Assembly (NCBI GenBank): GCA_963713825.1
Contig: CAVQNG010000006.1
Coordinates: 1 to 22,696, forward strand
DNA from: an uncultured Acidobacteriota bacterium
GTDB lineage: Bacteria > Acidobacteriota > Thermoanaerobaculia > Multivoradales > JAHEKO01
DNA: 22,696 bases
Direction: 5' to 3'
Within the stretch, counting starts at the first letter, position 1. Every line of letters begins with the position of its first letter. The position numbers were made by a program, and so were the translations under genes. A model generated the notes under the pieces. That model had not been told where the DNA came from. It searched no databases and saw nothing but the letters and a program-made list of their open reading frames with translations. Positions 1,101 to 18,793 of this stretch are shown here, one piece after another.

Positions 1101-1103
1101 GGT

Positions 1104-2085
1104 TCAAGATCCTCCAGTCGGCAAGCCCTCGGTTGAGAATCTCGACCTTCTTGCGCTTGCGGCCGACACCGACCACCAGCTCAGCTCGTGGGAAGAGACC
1201 GTCCACGATGTACCAGGAGCCCCGAACCCGGTAGTTGCTGATTCCCATGCCACCGCCTTCGACCTCGACTAAAAGAGCGGGGAGATCGGACGAGCTCGCG
1301 GCGGAGGGTAGTTGGATGTACACATGTTCGCCGTCGTCGAAGACGGTCTGAGGCAACCAAGGGATCTTTCGATCCCCTTTGATCGTGTACTTGAAATTGA
1401 GCCGGTCGACGGAGACAGCGGAGACCTGAGCCAGCGTAGTGGTCTGGGAGTCTTTCTCGAGCCTTTCGCGCTGCTGATCGGCATTGGCCCACAGCTCGAC
1501 GACTTCCTGGGGGTAGTAGAAGCCGACGTGACGGAGGTAGGCCGTCTCCGCCTTCTCGATCTCTGTTTTCGAAGGACTGATGAGGGAAAGGTGGTAAGTC
1601 CTTCGATCGGTGGCGATGACCAGGTTCGTGGCGAGGTCGTAGCCTTGAGGTTTGACGATCACATGAGGTGTCGGCCGACTGAGATCACCGGAGGCCAGAG
1701 GGCTGGTCACCCAGCGTTCCGTGTCTCCCAAGGCCACGCCCATCACGATCTCGCCAGCCTGAAGCTCGATGTCGCAAGCGCGCAAGGGTGTGCATTTGAC
1801 CTCGGGTTGGCTCTTGCCAAACGGGAAGACGACAGTCGCGCTTTGGGTCAGAACCGCGGCCTCACCGGTGGTGCGGAAGCGCTCAATGGCCTTGCCCACC
1901 TCTTGGTCCGGGACCCGGGACGTCGCCGGCGCTGGTGAGTCCAGTGGAGGCGCTGATCGATCAGACTCTGGCGAGGAGCTGAGTTCCTTGCTGGGGCCAG
2001 GCGGAGGTTCCTGGGCCAGCGCAGCTCCTGAACATCCTATTACCGTAAGAGTTGTAAGCGTGAGAAGAGTCTTCTTGAAGAGCAT
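1104..2085 (-). CDS. trbG: Conjugal transfer protein TrbG/VirB9
   Basis: Signal peptide, then CTPLRACDIELQAGE, LGDTERW, TNLVIATDRRTYHLSL, VFDDGEHVYI. The ORF track runs on to 928 over trbI; the true stop is probably TGA 1104-1106 after a 1-nt indel near 1125. Confidence 0.9.
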
Positions 2086-2098
2086 TCGGGATACCTCC

Positions 2099-2774
2099 CT
2101 AGAGCGTCGGAGTCCAGTGGATCTCGGTGATGTAGAGACCGAGGGGATTGGTGAGGATGGCTTCGGTGGTCTCCGGTGGGTCCACGTCCACGGAGAGGAC
2201 GGCCTGCCAGGCTCGACTCTCGTCGGCTCGTCCTTCGAGAGACCGTGCAGTCTCGAGCCACTGAATCTGCCAGGTGTTCTCTGAGAGTTGCAGGATGCTG
2301 CGGACCTCGACGTCGACCCTCCGGCGATTGGCCGTCTCGAAGGGGTTGAAGCGCGTGAAGTGATCGTTGAGGAAAGCCACCGCGGATCCTCGGGTGTGAG
2401 CGTACGCCCGAGTCAGGAGCTCATTCTGGGCCACCGCATCCAACGAGCACCGTGCGAATGTCGCGGACATACATCCCGAGCTCGTATCGCAGCATCCGCT
2501 CGTCGCTCTTGCGGAGCTTCTCAGCGGGGCCGAAGGCGACAGCCTGACCGGATCGATCCACTTCGACGACAAAGGGTGTTACGCGGCTTTGGGTCGAGAG
2601 CCACGTCAGCGCCACGGCCAGGACCAGGTTGGCAAGCAGCAGTGCTCCCGCCACGATCTGCCAATTGCGCTTGCCACGAGCCAAGCCATAGAAGCGATCG
2701 TTCCATTCGAGGCGAGCGCGAAGAAACGGCGAGTCGGCCTCGCTCACGCGTGGTTTGGCTCGGCTCATGCTCAT
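2099..2774 (-). CDS. trbF: Conjugal transfer protein TrbF/VirB8 (frameshift near 2445)
   Basis: N-half in ORF 2421-2774 (SPFLRARLEWNDR...NWQ, TM, TPFVVEVDRSG) and C-half in ORF 2099-2572 (TWQIQWLE, NPLGLYITEIHW). Confidence 0.9.
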
Positions 2775-3580
2775 TCTGACCCGTAGATGCGGTCAAGGTT
2801 GCCGGCCCGATGGCTGATCATGGCGGCGGCGAAGTCGGGGATCTTCCACACGAGTGAGGCGAAGATGAAGCTCGACCCCATGATCTCGAAAAGCGGAACC
2901 GGGTTGAGCAACAGAAAGTCATCCTGAACCATGTCGTACCAGCCATTGGTCATCGTCGTGAAGAGTCCCACCAGCAGATAGATCACAAAGAGCTTGACGC
3001 CGACCCGTAGGGCGTGAAGTAGATAGCCTTCCGAAAGGCCCACAGTCCAGCGCGAGCCACCGAACCCGAGGAGCAAGACGCCACCGCCGAGCACGATGTA
3101 GCTTTCGACCAGGGTCATGAGCATCTTGGTGGTGATGACCAGAAATGAGAAGAAGACCAAGAGGGGTGGCAGCAGCAGGAAGCCTGGAATCAGATTGGCC
3201 AGAAAGAACTTCGCCGTGGTCTTGAGCATCAACCAGGAGATCTGGACGCCTTGAGAGAAGACCGTGCCGGGATCGAGCGTGCCGATCCCTGATGCGAGCC
3301 CACCGGCCTGGGTGAAGCTGCCGATGAGCATCGGCATCCAGGTCGGTGCCAGCAGAAGAACGGTGTAGAAGAAGAACAAAGTTACGACCTTGCGCAGCAG
3401 ACTCACCATCACGATCTCGTCGGCGCGTGAGGCCAGGGCCCACCAGATCCCGGACCAGGTGAGCTCGATCGTGGCTAAGAGAATAAACAGCCGTTGCGCG
3501 ATCGGGATGAGGGTGTCGAGCCACTGAAGCGTGGCGGTCTGAAAAGCGAGATCGATGTTGTTGATGAGAGTGCTGGGCAT
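2771..3580 (-). CDS. trbL: Conjugal transfer protein TrbL/VirB6 (short form)
   Basis: Multi-TM protein with LVESYIVLGGGVLLLGFGGSRWT and GVKLFVIYLLVG; sits between trbJ/K and trbF. Confidence 0.9.
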   Translation of the reverse strand: MPSTLINNIDLAFQTATLQWLDTLIPIAQRLFILLATIELTWSGIWWALASRADEIVMVSLLRKVVTLFFFYTVLLLAPTWMPMLIGSFTQAGGLASGIGTLDPGTVFSQGVQISWLMLKTTAKFFLANLIPGFLLLPPLLVFFSFLVITTKMLMTLVESYIVLGGGVLLLGFGGSRWTVGLSEGYLLHALRVGVKLFVIYLLVGLFTTMTNGWYDMVQDDFLLLNPVPLFEIMGSSFIFASLVWKIPDFAAAMISHRAGNLDRIYGSE

Positions 3581-3582
3581 CT

Positions 3583-3981
3583 CTAGCCGTCACCAGGCTT
3601 GTCTGAAGACCTGTCCTCGGAATCAGATTCCGACTTTGGGGGATCTTGAAGGCCCTCGGGTACACCGGTCGAACCGGAGCCGACCCCGTATTCCGGAAAG
3701 GGCCTATCGGTCGCTTTCTCGAGGCCCTGAATGAAGGCGGTGCTGAGGACTACGGCGCAGTTCGGGTGTCCGCTGGTCAGCTTCCTTCGGCAGAGCTCGA
3801 CTGCGCGATGCCATGTCTTGCTGTCGACTGCAGCTTGATCGGCCCAGAAGGCTGCGTCGTAGTCTGAGGAAAGCGTTGGCTCCTTCAGGGATTCGATTGC
3901 GTCAGGGCTGCGGGTACCGCGGGAGCAAGCCACTGAGACCACGGCCAGTGCGAAAAGCACCAAGAGAGAACGGACTGTCAT
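3583..3981 (-). CDS. Lipoprotein in the TrbK/entry-exclusion position
   Basis: Lipobox (LAVVSVA-C) and two further Cys (ELC...PNC); lies between trbJ and trbL. Entry exclusion is inferred from synteny only. Confidence 0.6.
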   Translation of the reverse strand: MTVRSLLVLFALAVVSVACSRGTRSPDAIESLKEPTLSSDYDAAFWADQAAVDSKTWHRAVELCRRKLTSGHPNCAVVLSTAFIQGLEKATDRPFPEYGVGSGSTGVPEGLQDPPKSESDSEDRSSDKPGDG

Positions 3982-3997
3982 GGATCGCCTCACTTTC

Positions 3998-4765
3998 CTA
4001 GCCCCCACAGGAGAAGCAGGGATACGGCCACCCCGAGGGAATCCCGTTGGATCCTCCCTCTCCTAGATAGTCGGGAAAGGGCTGCTCTCCGTTGTCCAGG
4101 ACCCAGCGCTGGGTGGCTTCACGGTTGGCGTCGAGCGTGACTTGATAGCCCCAGTAGACGTTTTGCGCGTTGATGCTGGCCGCGAGAAGCTGATTCAGCT
4201 TGGCCAGCTCTTGGCCGCTGTGGGCGCCGATCATGTTGGCGACGTTCAAAGCCTCGAGGTTGCCCTCGGCGCTGTCGGCCAGCGCCTGGAGCTCGGCGAG
4301 CTGCTCTTGGGTGGAGAAGTAGTCGCGAGCCTGGGCGCTCACGGCATCCAGCGTGGCGGCCAGGGTGTCCAGGGTCGTCGTGGTCCACTGCCCGAAGGCC
4401 TCGTTGTAGTTCGGTTCCTCCGTGGGCACGGCCCCGGCGAAGAGATCGCGGTACGCCTCGTAGAGACCCTCGAGCGAGTAGGAGAGGGCTTCCCCCTGCT
4501 GGGAGAGCTCATTGAGATAAACCAGCCACCCTCGTAGATCACGCCAGCTGGGGTCGCCGATCCGCTCGAGATTTCGATACATGGTTTCGATCTGGTCGAT
4601 CTGGTTCTCGATTTGCTCGAGCGCCCTCACCGCCTGGAGGATGTTCTCGGCCAGGTTTGCGGGGTCGATCACGGCCATCTGACCGATGGTCTTGGGTGCA
4701 GCTGCCAGGGACAACAACAAGCAGACGGCGGTGACGCGAGCCCGAAGAGCCACAGAATGAGTCAT
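3998..4765 (-). CDS. trbJ: Conjugal transfer protein TrbJ/VirB5
   Basis: Signal peptide, VIDPANLAENILQAVRALEQIENQIDQ, SAEGNLEALN; ATGA overlap with the trbE stop. Confidence 0.88.
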   Translation of the reverse strand: MTHSVALRARVTAVCLLLSLAAAPKTIGQMAVIDPANLAENILQAVRALEQIENQIDQIETMYRNLERIGDPSWRDLRGWLVYLNELSQQGEALSYSLEGLYEAYRDLFAGAVPTEEPNYNEAFGQWTTTTLDTLAATLDAVSAQARDYFSTQEQLAELQALADSAEGNLEALNVANMIGAHSGQELAKLNQLLAASINAQNVYWGYQVTLDANREATQRWVLDNGEQPFPDYLGEGGSNGIPSGWPYPCFSCGG

Positions 4766-7199
4766 GCGATGTTCTCCTTTGGGATGCCGCTGAGCTGATC
4801 CGCCCAATCGCCTAGACCACGTTCGCAGAGCCACCGGCTGGACCAGCCCTGCCCGTGCTCGGCTTCCAGCTCCCCAATCCTTCGCAGGCTCTCCTTGTCA
4901 CTCGAGCCCACAAAGGAGAGCGCCACAGGTCCGAGATTCAAGTCGATCAAGCGCCGGCCTAAGGCTGAGGTGTAGTAGTAATCCCGCTTCGGCACAGCGG
5001 CGGCCACAGTCTCCGTCTCGCGATCGCTCAGGCCGATCTCGCGATAGAGGGCCGCGCCATGCTCGGTGGCGGCTTCAGGATTGGGCAGGAAGAGCTTCGT
5101 CGGACAGGACTCATAGAGCACATAGCGTTCCTCCGAGCGATGAATGTCGGCCAAGCTCTGGGTAGCAAAGATGACTGCCGCATTCTTCTTGCGCAGTTCT
5201 TTAAGCCAGGTCTGGATTTGCTCGCCGAATAGGCCATGCATGAGAAAGGTCCAGGCCTCATCGATGACGATGAGCGTTGGCTCCCCGTTGAGGCGTTGCT
5301 CGATGCGGTGGAAGAGGTACAGAAGTACAGGCACGACCACCTTCTCGCGCAGCTCCATCAAGTGACCCATTTCAAAGACCTGGAACCGCCCGTCCACCAG
5401 ACCGTCTTTCCGCGCGTCGAGCAGCGTGCCGAGATTGCCGTTCAAGGTGTAGGGCCGAAGAGCTTCGCGGAGCGCACTGTCCTGGAGCCGGATCTCGAGA
5501 TCCGTCAAAGTGGGCTCGGGTGAGGCGGCCAGGAGCTCGAGGGCGATGTAGATCGCGGTTCTCTGTCGAGGCGTAACGTTAAGTCCTTGGAGGTCGAGCA
5601 GGACCTCGAGCCACTCGGCGGTCCAGACACGCTCAGAGCGATCACGGATTCCGGCCAGCGGACTGAAGCTCAGGCTGTCGACGCTCTGGCCGGCGATGGC
5701 GTAGTGGTGTCCTCCGGCAGCTTGGACCAGGGGCTTCGCAGAGTAGCCCTTGTCGAAGACGAAGACTTGGGACTCGGGGTATCGGAACCACTGAGCCTGC
5801 ATGAGCCCCAGCAGCGTCGACTTGCCGGACCCCGTGGGCCCAACCACCAAAGTGTGCCCAACGTCGCTGACATGGAGATTGAGCCGAAAAGGGGTCGAGC
5901 CGCTCGTAGCGGCCCAGAGCAGGGCCGGGCTCCCCGTGCGGAACATGGGGGAGGGGTTCGCGGGGAGCCCAGCCCAAACACTGGTCAATGGCAAAAGATC
6001 GGCAAGATTCCGCGTGCTGATCAGCGGCCGTCGCACGTTGGGGTGGCCGTGGCCGGGAAGGCTCGCGAGAAAGGCCTCGATGGCATTGACCTCCTCGAGC
6101 CGGGCGCCGAAGCCGTGGTTTCGGAGCTCTTTCAAGACCAGCCGTATGGTCTCCTTGAGCTCCGAGCCCTCCTCGTTCATGAGGATCAGGGCTGGGGTGT
6201 AGTAGCCATACCGGACTGCGTGGGAGGCGGCGTCGGCCATTGCTTCATCGGCGTCCCGTGCCATCCGCAAAGCGTCTTTGTTGGGGAAGACGTGGCGCCG
6301 TTTCCCCGCTGGACTGACGATCTCGGCCAGTAACCCGGTCAGCCCGCGGCGCTTCTGCCACCATTTCATGCGGTACCGGCGGATGTGACGAGAGGCGGTC
6401 TCAGGATCTAACGGTATCCAGCGAGTCGAGTAGCGGTAGGAGACCGGGAGTCGGTCGAGAAAGGAAAGGACTCCGGGGGTGGTCTGACCCGGGAAGCTGG
6501 TGAGGCCGATCGGCGCGATCCACTCACGACCGATCCGTGGCGCAAAACCACCGGAGAAGTCCTGGTCGGCCAGCACGGCGTCTAGGTAGCAGGGTGGATC
6601 GGGCACAGCGACCGGGTGATCCAGACCCGTCAGGCAGCGATGGAGATGCGCAAGAACATCCGAGGAGTCGAGCCGGCAAATCGAGAGAAGGCTCGAGAGA
6701 CGATCTTCGACGTCGCTGAGCTGCTTTTCGAAGAGCTCGAGCTGCTCGTCCCAGTCGATGCCGCGATCCTCGCTACCCTCGATGAACCACTTGACGGCCC
6801 GCGAGGAGGCTTCCTGGGGCGGCATGTGCGTGACAAGGAGGGTGTAGCTGGTCTCATGGTTCTTCCGGCGCCTGTGTAGTGGCGACGGCGCTCCTCGTCG
6901 ATGAGCTCGGTGATGGGATCGGGGAAAGCTCCAGCGGTTGGATATTCGGCGGAGGGGCTGCGAACCGCATCGACCTGAAGCATCCAGTTGTGGCCAAGCG
7001 GCAGCAGGGCGGCGTTGACCTGGCGCGCGAGAATCGCCAGCTCTTCGGGCGAGGCGGAGTCCATGTCTGGCCCGCGATAGGTCCAACCAGCGAGAAAGCT
7101 TCCGTCTTTGTTGACGATCACACCAGGTGCGACTAGGGCTCCCCAGGTCAGGAGATCAGCGAGTCCCTTGGGCTTGCGCCGGTGTTCGCGGAGCAACAT
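4762..7199 (-). CDS. trbE: Conjugal transfer ATPase TrbE/VirB4 (frameshift near 6860)
   Basis: N-terminus LADLLTWGALVAPGVIVNKDGSF...YRGPD (in ORF 6630-7667); Walker A GPTGSGKS, FDKGYS, Walker B IVIDEAW and FATQS (in ORF 4762-7086). Confidence 0.95.
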
Positions 7200-7201
7200 G
7201 G

Positions 7202-7528
7202 CTAGCGCGGTTGCTTGTGGAACGGATGGATCGGTGCGAGCGGAGCCTCGAAGCTCGCGAGCGCGGGGTAGAAGGGCTGATAGAGCAGATGGCGGGCATA
7301 AACCCTCCACATCTGTGGGTCGAATCGCGCAGCAATCACCAGCAGAGAGTGGCCTGCCGAACCGAGAAGAGCAGCCAGCAGAAACGTGATTGGATGCGGC
7401 CCAACGCCGAGCAGGAGTACGACGATGGCCAGGAGATTGATCAACACCAGCTCCCGCTCGGCTCCGCCCAGGAGGATAGGTCGAACCAACGAGGCGTGAA
7501 TCGGGGCCTCCAGGGAGTTGCGGCTCAA
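7202..7528 (-). CDS. trbD: Conjugal transfer protein TrbD/VirB3
   Basis: PIHASLVRPILLGGAERE, two TM segments, ARFDPQ; TTG start overlaps the trbC stop. Confidence 0.88.
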   Translation of the reverse strand: MSRNSLEAPIHASLVRPILLGGAERELVLINLLAIVVLLLGVGPHPITFLLAALLGSAGHSLLVIAARFDPQMWRVYARHLLYQPFYPALASFEAPLAPIHPFHKQPR

Positions 7529-7845
7529 AAGACCGCTCCTGTGAATCCGAGGGCGGCCAGGAACGTGACTGCAGCCAGAGCGATCGCGCCACCGAAGACG
7601 ATCTGAGAGACCTTTCGGCCGCCGGTGCCATGCTCGGTGAAGGACCAGGCGAGGCCGGCCACGACAATCGCGGCGATCACCAGCAGGCGCGCAACCGTGC
7701 CGGTCAAGTTGTCGATCAGGGCCTGGAGGCCCGTGTCCCACGGCATGGCGGGGCCGCTGATGCTTGCCCCGGCCACGGCAGGGAAGAGGGTTGCCAGCAC
7801 GAGTGCCCAGGCGGCAAGACGGAGGCTAGGAGGATGTGAGTTCAC
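7525..7845 (-). CDS. trbC: Pilin TrbC/VirB2
   Basis: AAGGAG RBS and GTG at 7845; signal peptide, MPWDTGLQALIDNLTGTVAR, two hydrophobic helices. Confidence 0.88.
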   Translation of the reverse strand: MNSHPPSLRLAAWALVLATLFPAVAGASISGPAMPWDTGLQALIDNLTGTVARLLVIAAIVVAGLAWSFTEHGTGGRKVSQIVFGGAIALAAVTFLAALGFTGAVF

Positions 7846-8835
7846 TCGGGATTCTCCTTCTTCAGCAGGTGGATCGGCGATCGGCTCGACATGGAATTCC
7901 CCGTCCGGGCCGAGTCCCTGAACGGAAACGAGTTGCCGGACCCGGCGACTGCTGCCCTGGCGTTCCATGTGGACCACGAGGTGAACCGTGGAGGCAATCA
8001 GGCGTGTCTGGGAGGGGACGCCGGCTTCCTGTGCTAGCTGGTCGAGGCGAGTCAATGCCTCAGCCGGCGCTATTGGCATGCACCGTGGCGCAGCCGCCGG
8101 GGTTTCCGGTATTCCAGGCTTTGAGAAGGTCCAGGGCTTCCGCACCACGGACCTCACCGATGATGATGCGATCGGGTCGCAGTCGGATCGCGGCCCGAAC
8201 CAGGTCTCGCAGGGAGACGTTCTCGGTCGTGTGGAGGGTGACGTGGTTGGGTGAGTTGCACTGGAGCTCGTAAGTGTCCTCGAGGAGCAGAAGGCGTTCC
8301 GCCCGCGGTGCCAGCCATTCCATCTCACGGATGATGGCGTTGGCCAGAGTCGTCTTACCGCTGCCCGGGCCTCCGGAGATGAGGATGTTCTTGCGGCCGA
8401 AGATGGCTCCCTGAAGAACATCAGCCTGCGCTAGGGTGAGGATGCCCTCTTCGACATACTGATCCAGCGTGTAGATCGAAGTGGCCCGCTTGCGGATCGC
8501 GAAGACGGGGGAGGGGACTACCGGAGGCAGTAGGCCCTCGATCCGGCTCCCATCCAGCGGCAGCTCCGCCTCGAGGATCGGATGCTGATCGTTGACGACT
8601 CGATTGAGTAGACCGGCGACCGTGGAGAGCAGGCTCTCAGCCTGTGGATCGTCCATCGTGGCATCCAGCCGAACCAGCCCCTTTCTCGCGAGTCGATCCA
8701 CAGCTCGCCATCGGCGTTTCGCATCACCTCCGTGATGTCGTCATCAGCCAGTGCTTTGGCGACAGAATCGCCGAGCTCGCGGAGGAGGGATTCGCGGTGG
8801 CGAGTCGTGGATTCGTGATGTGAAAGGATTTTCAC
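7842..8835 (-). CDS. trbB: Conjugal transfer ATPase TrbB/VirB11 (2-3 frameshifts)
   Basis: Pieces in three frames: ITEVMRNADGELWID; ELPLDGSRIEGLLPPVV, Walker A GGPGSGKTT, LEDTYEL, LRPDRIIIGEVRG, WNTG, TVHANS; EALTRLDQL. Confidence 0.92.
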
Positions 8836-8846
8836 TGGGCGCTAAC

Positions 8847-8883
8847 TCCTATTTCTGTAGTAGTTAATACTACAAAAATAGGA
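8847..8883. promoter_or_regulatory. AT-rich 37-bp inverted repeat over the likely trb promoter and RBS (putative operator)
   Basis: TCCTATTT-C-TGTAGTA-gttaa-TACTACA-A-AAATAGGA. On the minus strand TTGCAC-17 nt-TATTAA and AGGAG precede the trbB GTG. Confidence 0.65.
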
Positions 8884-8923
8884 TAGGTGCAAGAGGAGCA
8901 ATTATTTGAGGGGAGATGGGGGA

Positions 8924-8981
8924 CCCTAGGCGAGGCGATCAGCGACGCGAAACGTCGTCCGTCTGCATTGCCTTCCTAGCC
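8924..8981 (-). repeat. attC-like 58-bp hairpin with non-canonical core
   Basis: Minus strand GGCTAGG-AAGGC-AATGCAGA-...-GCTGATC-GCCTCG-CCTAGGG gives the 7/5/8...7/6/7 spacing of integron attC sites. Confidence 0.6.
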
Positions 8982-9583
8982 AGTTCCCGCTGTGTGTTCC
9001 CAGCCACTTCGACAGCGCGCCTCAACCCTGCGTGGGTAACCGAATTGCCGGACAGTTCTCGCAAGGACGGCAGCGTGATCGAGTGCTGGCTTCGTTCTCG
9101 ATTGTCGAGCAATATCGTTGGGATGACGAAGAACTCCCATTGAGAGACCTCAAGAGGATCGAGAGTCTCTTGGTCGGTATGCGCAAGCAGCGCGAAGACA
9201 TAGACCTCCGCTTGCCGTCGCGTGTGGTCGCTTTGCCGGCCAGTGTGCTTGTCCCATGCACGAGTTTTTGGGACCCGAAAGGTGATTTGTGAGAGTTTGT
9301 CCTGATGCCAGCTCTGTATGTAGGCTGCAGACTTGACTTCAACTTGTGTGCCATCGAGTGCCTTCAGATCGTAGGCAGCCCATTCCTCGCGGACACCTCC
9401 AGCAACTCCGAGCGCCTGAGCAACGAGGTACTCCGCGAGAACGCCCCGCGTCGCATTGCTGACGACATCCGACGCACTCCACTGCCAGAAGCTCAACAGG
9501 TCGAAACCCAGCGTTCGGCCAGAAGCGTGGAAAGACTCGTGTCCGTCTCGTCTCTTCACCTCAATCGGTCCGAGATTGCTCAT
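8939..9583 (-). CDS. PD-(D/E)XK restriction-endonuclease-like protein
   Basis: RGVLAEYLVA...WAAYDL...DGTQVEVKS catalytic pattern; the start overlaps the 3' end of the Shedu gene. Confidence 0.7.
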   Translation of the reverse strand: MSNLGPIEVKRRDGHESFHASGRTLGFDLLSFWQWSASDVVSNATRGVLAEYLVAQALGVAGGVREEWAAYDLKALDGTQVEVKSAAYIQSWHQDKLSQITFRVPKTRAWDKHTGRQSDHTRRQAEVYVFALLAHTDQETLDPLEVSQWEFFVIPTILLDNRERSQHSITLPSLRELSGNSVTHAGLRRAVEVAGNTQRELARKAMQTDDVSRR

Positions 9584-10717
9584 CTGATTCACCCTCTAGT
9601 GCCTCAATAAGTATGCGCAATTTTGCTACCAGCTCATCAAACGTAACCACCACCACATCCTTCAGTTCAGCACGAAAAAGCTCGATGGCAGGTTTCCTCG
9701 TCGGAACTAGTTGGCACTGGTGGCGTTTCCAATGATGACGAGACACTTTGGCCGAAACGCGTGGAATCGACTTTGCGACCTTCCTACTAGTCCATCGTAT
9801 TCCTTCACCAGCGAATCACGATAGGTCAGGACCTGCTGACTGATCGCGCCGGCCAATTCGCGGCTCGGCGCATAGACACCAGTCCTGTACTCGTGCGATT
9901 CCAGCAGCGGGGTGGTCGGTGTCTTCAGCTCCACAATAACGGCGTTTTGGGTGACAGGGTTCTTTGCCAAATAGTCGGCAAGATGTCCACCGTGATACTC
10001 AATCCCCTTGCCCCCCACAAAGGCCTTCCCCTTGATGATCAAGATCGGGACCGCCACGAGTTGGGCCAGCACGAAAGCATGCTCTTCTAGAGCAGCTTGC
10101 CAGTAGTCCTCGCCTCCCTCCTCAAGTCGGCCTTCCCATTCAGAGAGAACATTCTTGAGGCTCGCGAGTCGGGTCAGGACACCAAGACGATCAAGGCTCG
10201 ATATGTCCAACCTTTGAATCCGATCGACGACGACCTTGGAATCACCCACAGAGGCGACCCACTCAAGGAACTGCGACAGAACATCGACCCCAGCCCTTTG
10301 GCTGAGCGCTACGATACGCTCGAAGTCGAAACGATTGGCAACTTCTTCGGCGTTGTCGTCTGCAAGGTCGAGCTTGAGAAGATGGATCTTCCCACTAGGC
10401 AGACCATGACGTTGGTGGTGGCGGTATAAGGCAGCCATGTGCCGTAAGAAAGCATGGACCTCGTCCGCACTCAGCTTCAGCTTGACCCACTCACTTGCCT
10501 TGAGGTGAGTGAGCTTCAGTTCGCTATGATCCTCCCAATCCTCGGCTTTTCGTTTTCGCTGAAACACGAACGTGCCATCAATGCAGGCCTTTGGATCATT
10601 CGGGTTGTTCAACAGAACGGCCTTGAAAACCAGTCTCCGCTGATCAGTCTCCCGAAGCGTTATTGGCTGGCATTCAGCCGTTCTTCCGGACGTTCTAGTT
10701 ATTGAGAAGGTGTCCAT
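9561..10717 (-). CDS. sduA: Shedu anti-phage nuclease SduA (DUF4263), frameshift near 9715
   Basis: ADYL...VIVELKTP, ELAGAISQ(Q)VLTYR, CLVIIG; the family C-terminus ELFRAELKDVVVVTFDEL is in ORF 9561-9746. Confidence 0.85.
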
Positions 10718-10773
10718 TCTTGCTCATCTAGGCAAGACTTTAGGGAGTGAGCACATCTTAGCCTCAACACCCG

Positions 10774-10833
10774 TCAAGCGGGATGATCTGAGCGGCCCGC
10801 CAGCGGCGGTTCTGCTCAAATGATGGATTAGGT
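10774..10833 (-). repeat. Degenerate attC-like 60-bp hairpin
   Basis: Minus strand ACCTAAT-CCATC-ATTTGAGC-agaaCCGCCgctGGCGGgcc-GCTCAGA-TCATCC-CGCTTGA. The TAA in the first box is the upstream gene's stop, as in gene cassettes; the R' box is decayed. Confidence 0.5.
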
Positions 10834-11659
10834 GGCCTCCTCGGCCGCTTCAACCTTGTCTTCGGATTTCATGTTGATGCTCGATAATTGCTGAAGTGGA
10901 TACGTTTCTAGCACGATCAGGCGATCCCGCAGCAAGACGCCGGACCACTTCTTGTAGACGAGTACGGAGGATTCGATGCCGTTGACGAGGGTCTTCATCG
11001 GTTCGAACGTAGCGCTGCCTTCCGTCATTTCTTGAGAGATCACCTGCTGCCTTTCCTCTGGGGATAGGTACATGTGCGGCAGGATCATGTAGCTGACTCT
11101 TGGGGGACTCATTGGTCTGAATCGATTCAGACATACCTTTTGCCAGAGGAGCGGTGCGCTTGGGCCCAAGTATCGGCGATCGATCTTCTTCATGAGCCGA
11201 AGCGCCATTGCAACGGCTCTGAGGATCAGCCGGTAATCGATGTGAAGGTACGTTCTGTCGTCCCATGTCTGTGGCGCAACCTTGTGACTGATGTCGCGAT
11301 CGCGTTTCTCCTTGAAACGGTTGTTCCGAATGAACCGGGAGAAGTACTTAGCCTCATCTTCGAGGTCACCTAGTTTGAGGGTGGCCAGATGGAAGGTCAG
11401 TCGCGTTTCTTTGCGTTCAGCTAGTTCCGCTAACCGGGCGGTGAGTTCGTCCGCAAGCTTGTCGGTGAGGATACGCAGCGCAGTGATCTCGGGATTCTTC
11501 ATGTCCGCAGCGACATCGTCAGTTTGAGATCTGCGGAAGTTCCACCGAGAACGATCGAAGCAGCGTCCAGGTCACAATCACCTCTCCGACCTCTCCTCGG
11601 AGGTTGGAAATAGGGACATCAGTCTGCGTTCGGAGGACTCGTAGCTTTCGTTTGTTCAT
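10828..11659 (-). CDS. Putative HEPN-domain protein (AbiU2-like), frameshift near 11535
   Basis: Helical protein with an Rx4-6H motif (KRDRDISHK); the N-terminus MNKRKLRVLR...LRGEVGEVIVTW is in the adjacent frame. Confidence 0.55.
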
Positions 11660-11931
11660 CAAGAGCGTGCCAGGGCCACCAGGGAATCGATTTCTATACC
11701 TACGATAACGAATAGTACCGCAGCAATTCACATGCCGTCGCATCTTCTGGATGCTGACCGAATCGCGTTGTATCCTTCTGCTCCCCAATGAGTTACGTCC
11801 CGGCGGAATCTTTTCTTGGGCGGCTTCAGGAGGCTGTATAGACCGAGAATTTCTCGCAACCCTTGGTCCAGCGTTGGGGGCGGCTTCAGCGTTATCTGGC
11901 GGTCTCTCGCAACCTGTCCAGATAGGAGGGT

Positions 11932-13891
11932 TCACCTGTCGGACTCTGCTGGAGAGGGTAGCTCGCCCTGGTCGCTAGCAACCTGTCTCAGGAAGTACCG
12001 AATCTTCCTCGCCCGAATCGGCGGATGCCCCGCAACAAAGATCAGCGCCTCGTCATCGGGCAATCGCATAGCTTCATCAGGCGTCAAAAGCCGACGCTGG
12101 ACCTGCTGCTGGGAGACGTACTGCTTGTTGAGAACCAGATCGAAGCGATCGCCGCGGTAGGAGCGCTGTTCCATGTGGACGGTCATATCGCCGGCCATGC
12201 GGCTGAGCAGGTCGGCGGTTTCGGGTTTGTTCGGAGCGAAGGCGATGCGGATGTGGCAGTTACCCGTGATGGACTCCTCGCGCCCGTAGACCCCGTAGTG
12301 CTGTGACAGGTCCTGGGTGATGAGAAAGGCGCTGATGCCATAGCCGGCGAGGTAGGCCAGGCTTTCCTGAAAGAAGGCAAGCCGACCCAGGGCAGGGAAC
12401 TCATCCAGCATCAAAAGGAGAGGTTGTCGGTAGTGGGGCACTTGCCGACCGTTCTCGAAGATCATCTTCTCGGTCAGGCGCCGAAGGGCCTGGTTCAAGA
12501 GCATGCGCACCAAGGGCCTCGTGCGGGCCAGATCGGATGAGGGCACAGTGAGGTAGAGACTCACCGGTCGCTCATGCTGCATCAGGGACTCGAGTCTGAA
12601 ATCGCTGGTCTCGGTGTTGGCTGCGAGAATGGGATCACGAAAGAGATCGAGAAAGGTCAGCGCCGTGGAGATCACGCCACTTCGCTCGTTGGGTGACTTG
12701 TCGAGAAGAGCCCGGGCGCTGGCGGCGACCACAGGGTGAATCGTGGTTGGCTCGCCGGTGGGGGAGTCAACCCAGCCCATCCGGCCCTCTGGATCGTGCT
12801 CGGTCAGGATCATGGCCTCGAGCGTTTCTTCGACAGGCCTCGCCGGATTTGTCAGGAAGTTGGCACAACCACGCAGGGTCTTGTCGGCCTCGGCATAGAG
12901 GATGTGCAGAATGACCCCGACGAGTAGGGCGTGCGCTGTCCGGTCCCAGTGGTCGCGGGCCCGATCACCGTTGGGGTCGATGAGAATGTCTGCGACGTTC
13001 TGGGCGTCACGGACCTCGTGGGGGCCGAGCCGGATCTCGGACAACGGGTTGTAGCGCGCGCTCGTACCCTCGGCGTCGGTCGGGTCGAACCGAATGCAGA
13101 CGCTCCCAAGCGCACGCTTCCGCCAACCGGCCGACAGGGCCCAGTTCTCACCTTTGATGTCATGCACCAGGACCGAGTGGGGCCAGGTGAGCAGATTGGG
13201 AAGCACCAGCCCCACACCCTTGCCGGTTCGTGTTGGTGCAAAGACAAAAACATGCTCGGGGCCATCATGGCGGAGATACCGGGGTCTCCCGCGATCTGAC
13301 CAGATACCCAGCAGAAGTCCCCTCTTGTTGTCGAGGAGTCCCGCCTCTCGAACCTCCGTCTCGGAGGCCCAGTGGGCCGATCCATGAGTGTCGGGCTTCT
13401 CGCGGAAGCGTGATGACTGAATCGTCAGATAGGTGAGGAGAAACACGGTACTGCCGCCGGCAGCGACAATCAAACCTATTCGCGGGGCTGCGAGAAGTAG
13501 CTCGAGGTCCCCACTCGCGCGGTATCGCCAGATCCAGAGCAGGATGTGGACGTGGAGTATAGAGAGGGCCGACGGCTAGAGCTCCGCTCACAAAGCTGAT
13601 GCATGCGAGCGGCACCACTGCGCGGCGAACGGAGCGAAGAAAGAGAACTGCTATGGCGGTGACACAGCTGCCCGCTGCCATCAGCAGGAGGTAGCGCCCA
13701 GCCTGAGCGGGGTGTTGGATCCACGGATCACCGAGATCGGGGTGATACCCGAGCTGGTGCGCGAAGTGCTGGGTGAAGAACCAGGAGACGATCCCTAAGA
13801 AGAGGAGATAGAGACCGAAGCCCTGGAAGACCAGGCCTCGATACTCCATCCTTCCGAAAGTGGGAAGACGATAGAGCTCCTTCTTTTTCAC
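11932..13891 (-). CDS. traG: Type IV coupling protein TraG/VirD4 (frameshift near 13555)
   Basis: N-terminal TMs, HGSAHWA, Walker A APTRTGKGVG, DIKGENW, Walker B LLMLDEFPALG, ITQDLSQ, RRLLTPDE. Confidence 0.95.
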
Positions 13892-14436
13892 TGGAGGGAG
13901 TCGGGCTGGGCCGGATCGATAATCCAGAGGGGTTGGACCTGGCCCAGGACCATTGAGCTCTGAACGGGCCCAAAGAACCGGCTGTCCCAGGAGTTCTCGC
14001 GGGGCGAGAACAGCCAGAGCTGGCCAGGGGAAAGGACATAAGAGCCGGCGGCAAGAGGGTAGAGGGTGCGACCTTTCGAGTCGACGGCCGGCGCCGGGCT
14101 CTGGATGTGCTGCCCATCCACGAACACTCCTTCAGGTTTGATCTCGACGCGACTGCCTGACGCAGCGACCACGTGTTTGATGACCGGCGAGGCGCCGGCG
14201 GGACATGAGCCCTGTCTCAAGTAACCGCGCTTGCGACCTAGCGTGCCAAAAGACTCGGGCAAGCAGGCAGCCACCAGATCTCCGAGCCCCACAGGAGATT
14301 TGCTGAGCCGGTAAAGACCAATCGGCACGCTTGGCGTCAGATTCAAGCGAAGGCCAGCGGCTTCAACGGCCCAGCAGGTTATGGCTGTACCCGCCAACAG
14401 GAGGATCGGCGTAAAGGATCGCGGTCGAAGCCTCAC
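13888..14436 (-). CDS. traF: Conjugative pilin-maturation S26 peptidase TraF
   Basis: NLTPSVPIGLY, RGYL..G.CP...VIKHV, SWDSRFFGPV. Confidence 0.92.
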   Translation of the reverse strand: MRLRPRSFTPILLLAGTAITCWAVEAAGLRLNLTPSVPIGLYRLSKSPVGLGDLVAACLPESFGTLGRKRGYLRQGSCPAGASPVIKHVVAASGSRVEIKPEGVFVDGQHIQSPAPAVDSKGRTLYPLAAGSYVLSPGQLWLFSPRENSWDSRFFGPVQSSMVLGQVQPLWIIDPAQPDSLQ

Positions 14437-15629
14437 GAGCGCCCACCTCTGTCCAACTCGAGAGAAGCATCGGCCACCTTGCGGCTGAGTGAGATCGTCA
14501 GTCGCAGTAGCTGTAGATGAGGGGCCGGCACTACCCGCGCGACCAGATGCCAGCCGAGCCGACTGATCAACCTGGTGGCAGTCTGAGATAGCTCTGATGT
14601 CTTGGGCTCTCGGTGCCGGGCGGGGGCCTTGGGACGGACCATGGCCTCGGCGACCTGCATAGTGCTCTTCGCTGCTCCTGTCTTGGAGATCGCGTGCTGG
14701 AGAGCGGTGCGAGCTTCGCGGAGGCTCGGGACCATGACTTCGCGGGCCGCCCTCTCGCTGCTTCGCTGAATCGCGATCCTCTCGGCTGTCTGACGGAGCT
14801 CGTGAATTTCCCGCCAGCGACTGGGTTGGGGTTTGGCAAGGGATTTGTCTGTCTGAGCCTCAAACGGTCCCAGCCGCTTCTGAAGCCGGCCGAGCGAGGC
14901 GTCACGATCCACAAACGATGCCTTGACCCTCCGCCGTCCGTCGGTCACGACCAGACCTCGGCCTCTCTTCTCGAGGTGAAGGCCGTAGTCCGCCAAACGA
15001 GTGTGGAGCTCTTTCCATGAGCGGGACTCCTGGAGATCTCGGCGAGCTACCTCCCGCACGTGCTCGCCAAAGGGGCGTTCCCCCGTGAGAGTCGAACCCC
15101 TGCGATCTCCGCTGCTGAGCTGAACACCGGTGTATCGATCTTGGTCGGGTAAGGCAGAGTGGCGACCAGGGACCTGTCGCAGCCCCAGCTCCAGCTCCTG
15201 ACGGCGGAGCGACCGCTCGAGGCGGGCGTAGTCATTGCCTGTGTGCCAGGCACGCTTCGTTTCCGGGTGGACGCGGTTCACCATGACATGGACGTGCTGG
15301 TGAGGAGTGTCATTGTGGGCCACTACAAGAGCCTGATGCTGATCCAGGCCCAGGTCCCGAAGGGTGCGGTCGACGACCTGGAGCATTGCCTCTCGGCCAA
15401 GGCGCTCCTCCGGGGGCAGATTGAGCGTCAGGTGATAGACGGGCTTCTTGACCCGCGCTCTCTCATTGGCAGTGACCCGCATGAAGGAGGCGGCGATCTC
15501 TGGATCGGTTGAAGGGAGATTTCGGCCGGAGACCCATTCCACTCGATCGGCTGCCTGACCGTCCTTTCCGGTCAGCAGATAGGACTGCAGTCCTTTGAAT
15601 CCTCGACCGTGGGTGACTTTCGCGATCAT
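14433..15629 (-). CDS. MOBP-type relaxase (Relaxase/VirD2-like)
   Basis: GRGFKGLQSYL (catalytic Tyr), PVYHLTLN, 3H motif AHNDTPHQHVHVMVNRVHP. Confidence 0.92.
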   Translation of the reverse strand: MIAKVTHGRGFKGLQSYLLTGKDGQAADRVEWVSGRNLPSTDPEIAASFMRVTANERARVKKPVYHLTLNLPPEERLGREAMLQVVDRTLRDLGLDQHQALVVAHNDTPHQHVHVMVNRVHPETKRAWHTGNDYARLERSLRRQELELGLRQVPGRHSALPDQDRYTGVQLSSGDRRGSTLTGERPFGEHVREVARRDLQESRSWKELHTRLADYGLHLEKRGRGLVVTDGRRRVKASFVDRDASLGRLQKRLGPFEAQTDKSLAKPQPSRWREIHELRQTAERIAIQRSSERAAREVMVPSLREARTALQHAISKTGAAKSTMQVAEAMVRPKAPARHREPKTSELSQTATRLISRLGWHLVARVVPAPHLQLLRLTISLSRKVADASLELDRGGRS

Positions 15630-15955
15630 GAGAGATGCCGTATGGCGCTGAGGATCTGGGTGAGTACCTCATTCAGGTGCCGCGTGTCGCCGAGTCGACC
15701 TGTCGCGTTGGCGACGTAGGCCAGTTGGTTCAGGTTGTTGCCGATGCGACCCAGGTGGTAGATGGCCTTTTCCTCGACACGCCGAGGCCGGGCCCGAGGA
15801 ATGGTGCCCAAAGCGGCCGTCCGTAAGTAGGTCGAGAGGGGAGTGCCGCAAAGCTCCGCCCTTCGGGTGAGCTTCTGATGTTCGTGAGGCGAGAGGCGAA
15901 CGGACAGGACCTCGGTGCGCCTGTGGACCGCGTCGACCCTGCGGTCACACGCCAC
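15626..15955 (-). CDS. mobC: Relaxosome accessory protein MobC (RHH)
   Basis: SVRLSPHEHQKL...LSTYLR..AL and LGRIGNNLNQLA; AAAGGA RBS before GTG 15955; ATGA overlap with the relaxase. Confidence 0.9.
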   Translation of the reverse strand: MACDRRVDAVHRRTEVLSVRLSPHEHQKLTRRAELCGTPLSTYLRTAALGTIPRARPRRVEEKAIYHLGRIGNNLNQLAYVANATGRLGDTRHLNEVLTQILSAIRHLS

Positions 15956-15988
15956 AGCCGTTCCTTTTGAGCGCCCGGCAGGGTTGCG

Positions 15989-16017
15989 AAAAAGAGGGCT
16001 TTCCCACGGGAAAGTCC
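15989..16017 (-). terminator. Hairpin plus U-rich tract upstream of mobC (terminator or oriT inverted repeat)
   Basis: Minus strand GGACTTTCC-CGTG-GGAAAGCCC followed by TCTTTTT. Confidence 0.45.
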
Positions 16018-16204
16018 CGAGCCGTGATGACAGAAGCGCCCCCGGCGCGTATGACATCGCATTGCTCGCATAGGAAGCGAAGTGCTGTCCACACCCATCC
16101 TGTGTGCTCGAGGCGCTGGACTTCGAGCGTCAGGGTGGACGACGGACCTGGATCGCTACCGGGAGCTCGGGTTGGTGGTCGTGGCGGGCTCCATCGCCTC
16201 GCCG

Positions 16205-16375
16205 GCTTGGAAGACAGTTTTGTTCTGGTCTCGCGGCAGATGAACCATGCTCGCATTCGGGCCTCGTGGGCCATCTCTTCGTTCGGTTCGGTGAGGGTGC
16301 ATAGTCTCGCTGGAGTGCCTTGGACGGTTTGTCCTGGGCCATGCAATGCGTCGATGCTGTCCCTCGAATCCTTTT
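16205..16375 (-). ncRNA. Putative bridge/seek RNA of the IS110 (ends approximate)
   Basis: Two consecutive stem/internal-loop/hairpin units (16287-16368 and 16210-16280) carry the target match (16338-16350) and the donor match (16248-16256). Confidence 0.7.
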
Positions 16376-16459
16376 GCCGGAGAGCCGTTTGGCGCCTCGA
16401 CACCAGGCCCGCCTCCGCCGGTCGCGGTTGTCGGTCCGTTCCGGTCGGGAGTCGGGCGC

Positions 16460-17497
16460 CTAGGTCATGGCTCGGTAGACCTCCTCGTTCTTCCACATGG
16501 CCAGTACGGTTGCGGCGATCTTGCGTGCAATCGTCAGCCTGGCCAAGGGCGGGCGAGTGCCGGCCTCCAGGAGCCGGTTGTAAGCCTCTTTCAAGGGATG
16601 ACCGGCCTTGGTCTGATGAATGGCTGTAATGGCCGCGCCCTTGAAGATCGCCTTGAGCGTCGGATTGTGGTTGCGATTGAGCCCTCGAGTCTGGACGGCC
16701 TGGGCCTTGATCCAGCCGCTTTCGGTCTGCACCCAGTCGGCCGAGCTGCGCGTGACGACTCCGAAACCGCAGTAGCTCCAGAATTGCCGTTTGCTGCGAA
16801 ACCGGTGCGGCGTGATGACGGTCGCGATCAGCATCGCCGCCCGGATCGGTCCGATGCCCGGAGCCGTCTCCAGCACCCTCGAGATCCGATACGTGTGCGA
16901 CTCCTTGACCAGAGCCCGCTCGGCCTCGGCTCTCAGCGCGGTCACGGAGTCGAGCTCGAGTCCGAGGAGTCTCGCCGGCGCTCGCATCGCCGCGGGCAAC
17001 TGCTCCAGCCACGGGTCTCGGTGCTGGGGATCGTAGACGCTGTTCCCTGAGCAGTGAATCCCACGGCGGCGCAGGTGGCTCTTGAGCCGATTCTTGGTCC
17101 GCGCGACATCCTGAGTCATCACACGATAGACACGGGCCCACTCGCGTAGCTGCCGGAAACGTCTTGGGGACTTGAACACTCCGGGTCCGGCCAGGCCGAT
17201 GCGCAGCTTCTCGGCCAGGCCGTGCGCATCGATTGCATCGCTCTTGGCTCCCGGTGACCACTCGTTCTGGTAGACCACCAGCTGGGCCGCATGTGGCGAG
17301 AGGATCTCGTAGAGCCATTCGCTCCAGGTACTCTCTTCGATGCAAATGTGCAGCGTTCCCCGCAGCTTGCCCACCGAGCTGACCAGGGCATGCCCGTTGG
17401 TGGCCACGACCTCCTGGGTCACGCGCTTGCCGGTAGCGCTCAGCACACAGATCGTCGAGCTGTCGCGGTGGACGTCGACACCGATGTATCGTTCCAT
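16460..17497 (-). CDS. IS110-family DEDD recombinase/transposase, 345 aa
   Basis: AGGAGG RBS and ATG 17497; YIGVDVH, CIEES, KSDAIDA, TAPGIGPI, RFRSKRQFWSYCG...RSS, ARKIA. Confidence 0.95.
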   Translation of the reverse strand: MERYIGVDVHRDSSTICVLSATGKRVTQEVVATNGHALVSSVGKLRGTLHICIEESTWSEWLYEILSPHAAQLVVYQNEWSPGAKSDAIDAHGLAEKLRIGLAGPGVFKSPRRFRQLREWARVYRVMTQDVARTKNRLKSHLRRRGIHCSGNSVYDPQHRDPWLEQLPAAMRAPARLLGLELDSVTALRAEAERALVKESHTYRISRVLETAPGIGPIRAAMLIATVITPHRFRSKRQFWSYCGFGVVTRSSADWVQTESGWIKAQAVQTRGLNRNHNPTLKAIFKGAAITAIHQTKAGHPLKEAYNRLLEAGTRPPLARLTIARKIAATVLAMWKNEEVYRAMT

Positions 17498-17612
17498 GGC
17501 GGTGTTCCTCCTTTCGGGCTCGATGCCCGGGTCGTTGTCTTGCCAACCCAAGCATCTCCCGATTGGGGGAGACCGCCACCATCGGATTCCTCAATTCAGG
17601 TCTCTCCTCTGC

Positions 17613-17650
17613 ATGGCGACATGACGCGTCTTACTACGTAGTCTTGCTGC
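17613..17650. other. Putative oriT (nic-proximal part), split from mobC by the IS
   Basis: Directly upstream of mobC in the empty allele; hairpin arm, palindrome ACTACGTAGT (17633-17642) and GTCTTG|C resembling MOBP nic sites. Confidence 0.45.
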
Positions 17651-17767
17651 TCCGTGCACGTGGATCTGTCTCCGACTCGTCAATCTCCAACTTTCCCGCT
17701 GTCGTCGAAGCTGTTGAAGGTGGGGGAATCCCTCCGGGGTTTCCAGGTTGGGGGTTCGGGAGGGCAC

Positions 17768-17906
17768 CTTCCACAGCTGGCCGAGCTGCTACAGGAAGAG
17801 ATCTACAGGAACCACTATAGGGAAGGGGTGAGAGTTTATGCGTGGTCGCGGTCGCCAAAGGGGGAGAGTTTATGCGTACCGAGGGGGAGTGTTTATGTGT
17901 GGAAAT
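17768..17906. repeat. Iteron array / putative oriV
   Basis: Three copies of AGGGG(T)GAG(A/T)GTTTATG(C/T)GT (17823-17843, 17858-17877, 17882-17900), CTACAGGAA twice (17789, 17803) and a DnaA-box-like ATTTCCACA on the minus strand (17898-17906), all just downstream of repA. Confidence 0.7.
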
Positions 17907-17929
17907 TCCAGGTTTTCCCCAGGTTGAGA

Positions 17930-18793
17930 TCACGGTTCGAGTCGTCTCCGAATGTGGCAGGGTGAGGGCTTGAGAAGGAGTCCACCGCGGACCTGCTCGA
18001 CTCGAGCAGCGGGGTAGAGTACGAGTACCTGGCGGAGTCCGGCGAGGAAGTAGCGCTTGAAGTCTTTACGGTCTCGATAGTCGGCCCCGAATTGCACCGC
18101 AAGAGCAGCCCAGGGAATCCGAGAGGGCTTCCTCAGGTAGCTGTTGCGATGGGTGAGCCAACTGTAGATATCGAGCGCCATCGGGCTTCTGAGGGCTTTG
18201 AAGGCGCGAAGGTCTATCGGAACGGGCCGTTCACACACGGCCTCGAAGAACCCGGGGCTCAAAGAGACCGTTGAGCGCCACGAGACCGCCTGCTCAGGCC
18301 TCACTGGGTTCCACCAAAGATGAGCTTCGTCTGAAACTCGAAAACCCCGGTCGTGCCATTCGCCTGAAGCCCGTTTGTCCCAGGTGAAGGCAATGGTCGC
18401 TCCGAATAGCCGTTGCATCTGGTCTCGGAGTCGGCCGATGGGACCAGTCCGTCCGCCTCGTGGGAGCAGGCCGAGCTGAGCCATGAAGCTGCTCAGCGAC
18501 GGGCCGAGCTGCAGTACAGGCTCCCGAGTTCGAACTGCCTCCGTCGTGACCCAGGCCATGAGGAGTCGAGGGTAGCGGCCGTACGGTAGCTCTAAGAGCG
18601 GATGAGCCGTGATCGAGACGCGGAGTGAACCGTTGGTGCGCACAAAGGTCTTCGTCCGCTGTCTGCTGTGGGGGAGAGTGGTCTGAACGAGCAGCCGCGC
18701 CATGAAGCCCAGTGCACCAGCTCTCTTGGCTTCCTCCGCCTCGATGAGGAGTGACTCTCGGAGGAGTCTGTCTTCGGGCGTCTGACGGCCGAT
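17930..18793 (-). CDS. repA: Plasmid replication initiator RepA (RepA_C type)
   Basis: IEAEEAKRAGALGFMARLLVQTTLPH, LPYGRYPRLLMAWVTTEAVRT, SPMALDIYSWL, QFG. Family-like sequence extends upstream of ATG 18703 to an in-frame ATC at 18793 behind GGAGG. Confidence 0.85.
   Translation of the reverse strand: MGRQTPEDRLLRESLLIEAEEAKRAGALGFMARLLVQTTLPHSRQRTKTFVRTNGSLRVSITAHPLLELPYGRYPRLLMAWVTTEAVRTREPVLQLGPSLSSFMAQLGLLPRGGRTGPIGRLRDQMQRLFGATIAFTWDKRASGEWHDRGFRVSDEAHLWWNPVRPEQAVSWRSTVSLSPGFFEAVCERPVPIDLRAFKALRSPMALDIYSWLTHRNSYLRKPSRIPWAALAVQFGADYRDRKDFKRYFLAGLRQVLVLYPAARVEQVRGGLLLKPSPCHIRRRLEP

Follow-up and report, generated by a model that had tools for sequence, protein, structure and literature searches.

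The window analysed here is an entire 22.7-kb contig (22,696 nt) from an uncultured Acidobacteriota bacterium. Its minus strand carries an IS110-family insertion sequence at positions 16065-17642, 1578 bp long when its 5-nt core is counted once (equivalently 16070-17647), with the second copy of the core at 17643-17647. The element has a short left non-coding end of ca. 145 nt (17642-17498), a transposase gene, and a long, RNA-encoding right non-coding end of ca. 390 nt (16459-16070). We hold with high confidence that it is an IS110-family insertion sequence of IS1111-type layout, whose DEDD/serine recombinase would be guided by a ca. 133-nt RNA made from the 3' non-coding region. This reading draws on two genomic copies of the element, on its ends, on uninterrupted forms of its insertion sites, on a two-loop RNA fold conserved among relatives, and on RNA loop segments that vary together with the DNA they match. 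Production of the RNA, its binding by the protein, formation of a circle, and exchange directed by pairing are steps that we infer from the published biochemistry of the family. The element, its junctions and its target flanks are as follows:

16065..17642, minus strand: insertion sequence; a 100% identical copy lies at G000:C35, and uninterrupted sites are present in genome G120 (locus L121) and in record 21 of X6.
16065..16069, minus strand: right-junction core, donor-type; GCGAG in element orientation (CTCGC on the plus strand); the empty site L121 has it a single time, and the C35 copy has it at each junction.
17643..17647, minus strand: left-junction core, target-type; GCAAG in element orientation (CTTGC on the plus strand), with one mismatch to the right-junction copy.
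16058..16064, minus strand: right target flank, read by a guide; CAATGCG in element orientation.
17648..17656, minus strand: left target flank; CACGGAGCA in element orientation, running on from the core in X6 record 21.

The genome holds two copies of the element, one in the window and one on contig C35, which are identical over 1550 bases. Identity with the C35 copy does not stop at 17612 and instead extends up to 17644; a mismatch at 17645 is followed by four more common bases. A homologue of 17613-17644 also lies upstream of the transposase genes of two relatives, L007 and L008, whose proteins are just 79% and 66% identical to that of the window. For calibration of the ends, we used a relative with ten copies in genome G001 (L017-L026) that inserts into a repeated palindromic (REP) element. 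A search of G001 with the left flank of this relative gave 68 matches at up to two mismatches, and among 40 distinct contexts viewed, 33 were uninterrupted and 7 were occupied by the element. The 4-nt sequence CGAC occurs once in the empty REP site and at both junctions when the site is occupied, which means that the core is duplicated on insertion; the bases 5' of CGAC are identical in all copies yet are part of the target. Two uninterrupted sites were found for the window element itself. When the DNA flanking it on the repA side was searched against 401 genomes of the phylum, a single same-genus genome, G120, was recovered, in which the flank homologues are ca. 326 bases apart, versus ca. 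1930 in the window, so that the interval between the same landmarks is ca. 1.6 kb shorter. There, a C35-type right flank leads through a single CTCGC (plus strand) into the left flank without a break. The second site is in a metagenome contig, X6 record 21, which matches 17643-17750 without differences; the sequence preceding 17643 resembles the right flank of C35 and G120 and ends exactly at the expected target joint. Positions 17613-17642 are missing from both uninterrupted sites. Thus, the G001 calibration and the G120 and X6 empty sites together place the ends of the element at 16065 and 17642.

A preliminary description of this DNA had given a different anatomy. It had the element spanning 16063-17612, with TGC as the core, 13 unbroken nucleotides of target guide that match the rejoined flanks, and those ends meeting in the circle junction. 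The TGC triplets that it quoted are present, at 16063-16065 and 17610-17612, as is the 13-mer CGCATTGCATGGC at 16350-16338 of the minus strand, and in L007 the triplet at the corresponding internal position happens to match the right-junction triplet of that element. One of the two proposed ends was close, 16063 being within 2 bases of 16065, whereas the other, 17612, falls short of the left end by 30-35 bases, within the element. The proposed fusion of the flanks via a single TGC therefore fails, because the stretch 17613-17642 that it treats as flank is part of the element: the second copy has this stretch unchanged, L007 and L008 conserve it, and both empty sites lack it. The duplicated stretch is CTCGC/CTTGC on the plus strand rather than TGC, and the reconstructed target and predicted circle junction fall with the end at 17612 on which they were built. 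The preliminary description had itself named different ends in empty alleles or other copies as evidence against it, and such ends are what these sites and copies show, contradicting its own. Together with the guide comparisons given below, this makes the earlier anatomy extremely improbable.

The first part of the 3' non-coding region is conserved across 66 distinct downstream regions, drawn from 80 fetched loci, and the entire region is conserved in L007, L030, and L008. The relatives found numbered 467. An alignment of 39 non-identical RNAs (A4) yields a consensus fold with two stem-loops and 23 pairs, 12 of which are changed on both sides. The stems GAGGG/CCCTC and GCAT/ATGC and the inner GGAC/GTCC hairpin that had been proposed from the window sequence are all present, and the first two, along with an inner helix, recur in this consensus. 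A covariance model, R1, was trained on 35 sequences, leaving out the window and its three close relatives. R1 detects the window RNA over its full length (model positions 1-135) with 91.7 bits and an E-value of 6.6e-22; it also recovers the RNAs of L001, L007, L008, and L030, and finds nothing credible at the two empty-site loci. A search of 15500-18200 against Rfam 15 at E-values up to 1 produced a sole match, to Actino-ugpB on the other strand, with 21 bits against a gathering threshold of 42.5 (E 0.91). The RNA and the loop segments assigned as guides are:

16239..16371, minus strand: guide RNA core, 133 nt, as delimited by R1; stem-loop 1 at ca. 16365-16293 and stem-loop 2 at ca. 16287-16244, each with a large internal loop.
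16350-16343, minus strand: guide A, right-target guide, CGCATTGC; 5' side of the stem-loop 1 loop; complements 16065-16058 of the top strand, which comprise the final base of the core and 7 nt of the right flank.
16312-16306, minus strand: guide B, left-target guide, CAGCGAG; 3' side of the stem-loop 1 loop, with the same letters as CA of the left flank plus the core.
16256-16248, minus strand: guide C, left-donor guide, ATGCGAG(CA); 3' side of the stem-loop 2 loop, with the same letters as the right end of the element plus the core (16071-16065) and the first 2 nt of the right flank.

These three loop segments differ among relatives, against a constant scaffold. To measure how they do so, the fit of each guide to its own locus was compared with its fit to the loci of unrelated guides. 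Guide A fits with at most one mismatch in 8 positions in 17 of 31 own pairs versus 2 of 890 cross pairs. For guides B and C, at most one mismatch in 9 positions is seen in 26 of 34 own pairs (33 of 946 cross) and in 26 of 36 own pairs (37 of 620 cross), respectively. Judged by these comparisons, all three guides follow their own flanks and ends across 31-36 related elements and seldom fit those of others, and the check for guide co-variation that the preliminary description had proposed comes out in favour of guidance. Guide B fits the C35 copy and the G120 empty site without mismatch. The empty REP sites of the G001 relative show it to read the target rather than the element. Guide C changes in step with the right end in L007, L030, and L008. 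Its sequence, ATGCGAGCA, had already been pointed out at two minus-strand positions, 16256-16248 and 16071-16063, and its assignment as a donor guide reading right end and core is borne out by these co-changes and by the family-wide comparison, as is the broader proposal of a downstream two-loop RNA with loop segments matching the element's own DNA by the consensus fold and the guide tests.

Guide B was absent from the preliminary description, which had taken all of CGCATTGCATGGC to be the target guide. Its first 8 nt are indeed guide A. The last five, ATGGC, belong to a conserved, TGG-containing scaffold, with ATGG(C) kept in nearly all 39 relatives. The complement on the ATGGC side lies inside the element, at 17617-17610. 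Among 27 related elements it is exact in just one, and 16% of 2000 shuffles give the RNA one or more exact 8-mer complements to the left end. By these counts, the match of the scaffold to 17617-17610 is chance. The opposite orientations of the two guides, which had been flagged as an oddity, are expected from the published dual-strand pairing: guide A pairs with the top strand, and guides B and C pair with the bottom strand.

The recombinase is encoded by a single intact gene:

16460..17497, minus strand: transposase gene P0001, 345 amino acids plus stop; matches to PF01548 (5.9e-15) and PF02371 (1.1e-12).

The protein scores 55.8 bits against PF01548 (DEDD_Tnp_IS110; cut-off 29) and 48.6 bits against PF02371 (Transposase_20; cut-off 21.3). 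It has the N-terminal DEDD RuvC-like domain and the C-terminal Transposase_20 domain by which the IS110 family is recognized, and the earlier assignment to this family, with a DEDD transposase, is upheld by these matches. Among solved structures, only IS621 (PDB 8WT6; E 5.8e-6) and ISCro4 (E 6e-4) were matched. The best match in a plasmid collection of 72,556 records has 26% protein identity, and a large protein collection contains many relatives with 58-99% identity, nearly all of them metagenomic. Across an alignment of 35 relatives, D8, E55, D87, and D90 never vary, and conservation of E54 and S252 is 90% or more. S252 aligns opposite the serine of ESG in IS621, which we take to be the catalytic one. 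The C-terminal motif GFGVVTRSSA, at 244-253, retains the serine of GL-P----S(T)G and lacks its proline and glycine.

Several results weigh against RNA guidance of this element, or limit how strongly it can be stated. Guide B matches the left flank and core of the window copy at 6 of 7 positions, with one mismatch. In the guide A comparison, 8 of the 39 loci were excluded beforehand for want of a definable right end, and four mismatches occur in 5 of the 31 own pairs. The own-versus-cross counts are not independent trials, as the sequences share ancestry; even so, own and cross pairs differ widely. Inspection by eye of the 5' side of the stem-loop 2 loop, and of the sequence further downstream, revealed no right-donor guide; that side of the loop is nearly constant in the family and has no complement to the core plus left end. 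The single-sequence fold of the window RNA is no better than that of shuffles (z -0.38), a common outcome with RNAs dominated by internal loops. Contigs from RNA libraries cover 16059-16116, 16157-16195, 16344-16593, and parts of 17295-17538 (X18, with ca. 95% likeness in the longer pieces), and 17072-17251 (X20). No guide RNA transcript was seen in either set and nothing covers 16255-16315, in contigs that cannot show transcripts and may include DNA carry-over. NCBIfam NF033542 ('IS110 family RNA-guided transposase') matches the protein over its full length (4-339) with 134.5 bits, just below the cut-off of 140; this near miss is consistent with a divergent clade. Finally, the subterminal inverted repeat of the window copy is not significant, the best match being 6/7 with a local score of 9 versus a shuffle mean of 11. 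Among relatives, 6 of the 21 tested have repeats that score at a level seen in at most 1% of shuffles. The segments concerned are:

17627..17638, minus strand: left subterminal repeat-like segment, homologous in alignments to the ATCATAGGAAAG segment of relatives.
16069..16079, minus strand: right subterminal repeat-like segment, from alignments; CGCTTCCTATG.

Some of these results would also fit other explanations. The conserved 3' region could be a structured untranslated region (UTR), acting as a terminator, mRNA stabiliser, or antisense regulator, with the matches at the ends representing terminal sequences recognised by protein. Such a region would sit well with the RNA-library contigs, which gave no guide RNA transcript, and with those loop parts, the 5' side of the stem-loop 2 loop among them, that do not vary in the family. 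However, the variable loop segments follow DNA outside the element (the right flank, and the left flank by way of the empty sites) and differ among relatives, whereas ends recognised by protein would not make an RNA co-vary with flanking host DNA; moreover, published experiments on the family show the RNA to be required and programmable. We therefore consider a structured UTR very unlikely. A second possibility is that both copies are inactive relics, in which guide and ends have been kept and movement has ceased. That there are just two genomic copies, that the guide has a mismatch to the left-junction core in the window copy, and that the subterminal repeat is weak would all agree with decay. 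Against this, the copies are identical over 1550 bases, with the reading frame intact and the catalytic positions conserved, and the same sites are found both occupied and empty among related genomes and metagenomes. This coexistence indicates recent movement, and we regard loss of activity as improbable, if less so than a structured UTR.

For RNA-guided recombination, the published work on the family suggests the following course. The ca. 133-nt RNA would be transcribed from the 3' non-coding region and bound by the DEDD/serine recombinase that it guides. Stem-loop 1 would read the target, and stem-loop 2, through the 3' strand of its loop, would read the element's own right end and core. The element would excise as a circle with abutted ends, the RNA would align the circle junction with the target, and strands would be exchanged within the core. 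Recombination of the circle with the motif CA-GC(G/A)AG-CAATGC would then insert the element in one orientation, with the 5-nt core at both junctions.

The cores of the window copy bear on where exchange may occur. The left junction has target-type letters, as in the X6 empty site, and the right junction has donor-type letters, the two differing at the third core base; unlike the window copy, the C35 copy has donor-type letters in its left-junction core. Because the two junctions of the window copy differ in this way, strand exchange on the AG side of the third core base is suggested, for this one event and if no repair took place. The effective core may be the AG dinucleotide, which is the part of the core common to the four subclade members. 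A more ambitious reading would make the element part of a deep-branching IS110-family clade with a three-guide RNA that lacks a right-donor guide and is tuned also to the inserted element for excision, with the core mismatch mapping exchange to AG. Such a clade would be marked by at most 26% identity to annotated plasmid transposases, a score below the NCBIfam cut-off, and the lack of an Rfam model. We put this forward only tentatively, as an unlikely refinement. In the window subclade, guide B (window 16303-16312) makes 10 contiguous matches to the integrated junction, running from left flank through core into element, and guide C (window 16248-16256) makes 9, from element through core into right flank; guides B and C thereby extend 2-3 bases beyond the core, into the element and the right flank, respectively. 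This run-on past the core may have a role in excision or may simply come with the scaffold.

We compared the element with two groups of characterized systems. The first comprises the IS1111-group elements with seekRNAs, ISEc11, ISKpn4, ISPst6, and ISPa11 (Siddiquee et al. 2024, PMC11187229). As in these, the transposase gene is followed by a long non-coding region, its product is of similar length (345 amino acids here, 330-350 reported), the two target matches overlap, the complement to the top strand precedes the other match, insertion is site- and orientation-specific without long target duplication, and the same site is used by different relatives (PMC11187229). Unlike them, the window element has weak subterminal repeats, whereas those reported are of 11-13 bp and near-perfect; its transposase has GFGVVTRSSA where theirs have GL-P----S/TG; and its extensions past the repeats are ca. 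6 and 2 nt (counting the AG core with the left), against 7(6) and 3 (PMC11187229). It also has a clear second loop with a donor match, whereas the short seekRNA description covers target matches (PMC11187229).

The second comparison is with IS621 (Durrant et al. 2024, PMC11208160), for which the bridge RNA model has the strands of each loop pairing with the top and bottom DNA strands, both including the core. Here too there are two stem-loops with internal loops, the target loop preceding the donor loop; every guide includes the core, both DNA strands are paired, and the recombinase is of the DEDD and serine type (PMC11208160). The differences are that the RNA lies in the right end rather than the left, and that the polarity of the target loop is reversed, so that its 5' side addresses the top strand and right flank and its 3' side the bottom strand and left flank (PMC11208160). 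In addition, the donor guide is on the 3' side of its loop and a right-donor guide was not found; the duplicated stretch is 5 nt, with AG possibly the effective core, versus CT in IS621 (PMC11208160). Similarity between the proteins reaches only E 5.8e-6. Closer in layout are the bridge RNAs predicted for the IS1111-group elements ISCARN28, ISAzs32, and ISPa11 (Durrant et al., Extended Data Fig. 10, PMC11208160), which, compared by description only, are likewise right-end RNAs with loops complementing target, donor, and core.

Taken against the features that define these groups, the window element inserts in a site- and orientation-specific manner, leaving a short core at each junction without long duplication, as IS110-family members do, and its internal-loop strands match both target strands around the insertion point, as those of bridge RNAs and seekRNAs do. 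It has the long downstream non-coding region and short left end of the IS1111 group, and does not have the 11-13 bp perfect or near-perfect subterminal inverted repeats of that group. We thus assign it to the IS110 family in the broad sense, with an IS1111-like layout. We do not place it in a subgroup, because strong subterminal repeats and the GL-P----S/TG motif are not cleanly present and because protein identity to any transposase of the plasmid collection is at most 26%. Nothing observed falls outside the known kind; the element is a divergent addition with an unusually complete sequence-level record.

The target site is flanked on one side by repA and its iteron-like repeats and on the other by the nikA-relaxase operon, all on one strand. 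CAATGC is found 3' of the core in the window, in the C35 copy, and in the G120 and X6 empty sites, and it also flanks a different element of the same subclade, L030 (73% protein identity), which sits in homologous context and, like both copies of the window element, at this motif and in this orientation. Occupation of the same motif by L030 argues that CA-GC(G/A)AG-CAATGC, in element orientation, is a common landing pad in this family of conjugative elements. The window element is thus an insertion sequence homing to a conserved site between replication and transfer modules, which is a plasmid-borne form of spread that spares genes. DNA searches of the plasmid collection found no close relative of the element, and for its neighbourhood only two 74% RepA matches.

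What the window element offers is a clean natural case of RNA-guided recombination that is legible from sequence, through two copies, two empty sites, three guides, and a core mismatch that hints at the position of strand exchange. The ca. 39 related RNAs, each with its own target, are a possible starting panel of orthologues for work on programmable recombinases. What is known of the family is unchanged by this element, which is an ordinary but well-preserved IS110/IS1111 member.

Much of the remainder of the contig, 3-15629 on the minus strand, is a transfer module with TrbI, VirB9/CagX, TrbL/VirB6, TrbE/VirB4, TrbC/VirB2, a VirD4-type coupling protein, an S26 (TraF-like) peptidase, a MobA/VirD2 relaxase, and NikA/MobC; the contig also encodes RepA. 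From this gene content, it looks like a conjugative plasmid or an integrative element. Amid the conjugation genes, an open reading frame at 9707-10717 (minus strand) has both Shedu SduA domains (PF21407 and PF14082), which belong to an anti-phage defence nuclease family. Just downstream of the end of the repA gene, 17823-17900 contains three direct repeats of ca. 21 nt (core GAGAGTTTATGCGT; 100, 90, and 71% identical to the first), which look like iterons of a replication origin; they emerged from a separate repeat search, Tandem Repeats Finder having reported nothing in 17650-18000. Elsewhere in the genome, a third nikA-like stretch at G000:C3:1149254-1149574 (L088) is 59% identical and has two in-frame TAG stops, and it resembles the decayed remains of a related element. 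We rejected L088 as an empty site, because its upstream similarity to the window stops ca. 15 bases short of the insertion site. The G001 relative used for calibration (L017-L026, L086, L090-L119) has at least ten copies, and several of its loci have tandem REP arrays as well as two closely spaced elements.

Three further observations concern the right end and its RNA. Beyond the two-loop RNA lies one more conserved segment:

16070..16238, minus strand: distal 3' non-coding region, conserved in the alignment with L007, L030, and L008.

This stretch of ca. 170 nt, which connects the two-loop RNA to the right end, has a conserved TCGA...TCGAG segment pair in close relatives and may belong to a longer precursor RNA or contribute to recognition of the donor. 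In one branch of the family (L043, L045, L046, L049, L056, L057, L061, L062, L077, and L082), an extra hairpin of ca. 24 nt separates TTCG from the GAGG strand in the stem-loop 1 outer stem; these loci were omitted from alignments A4 and A6. Lastly, the -35-like TTGACA in the right ends of many relatives corresponds to TGGACA in the window copy, with different spacing.

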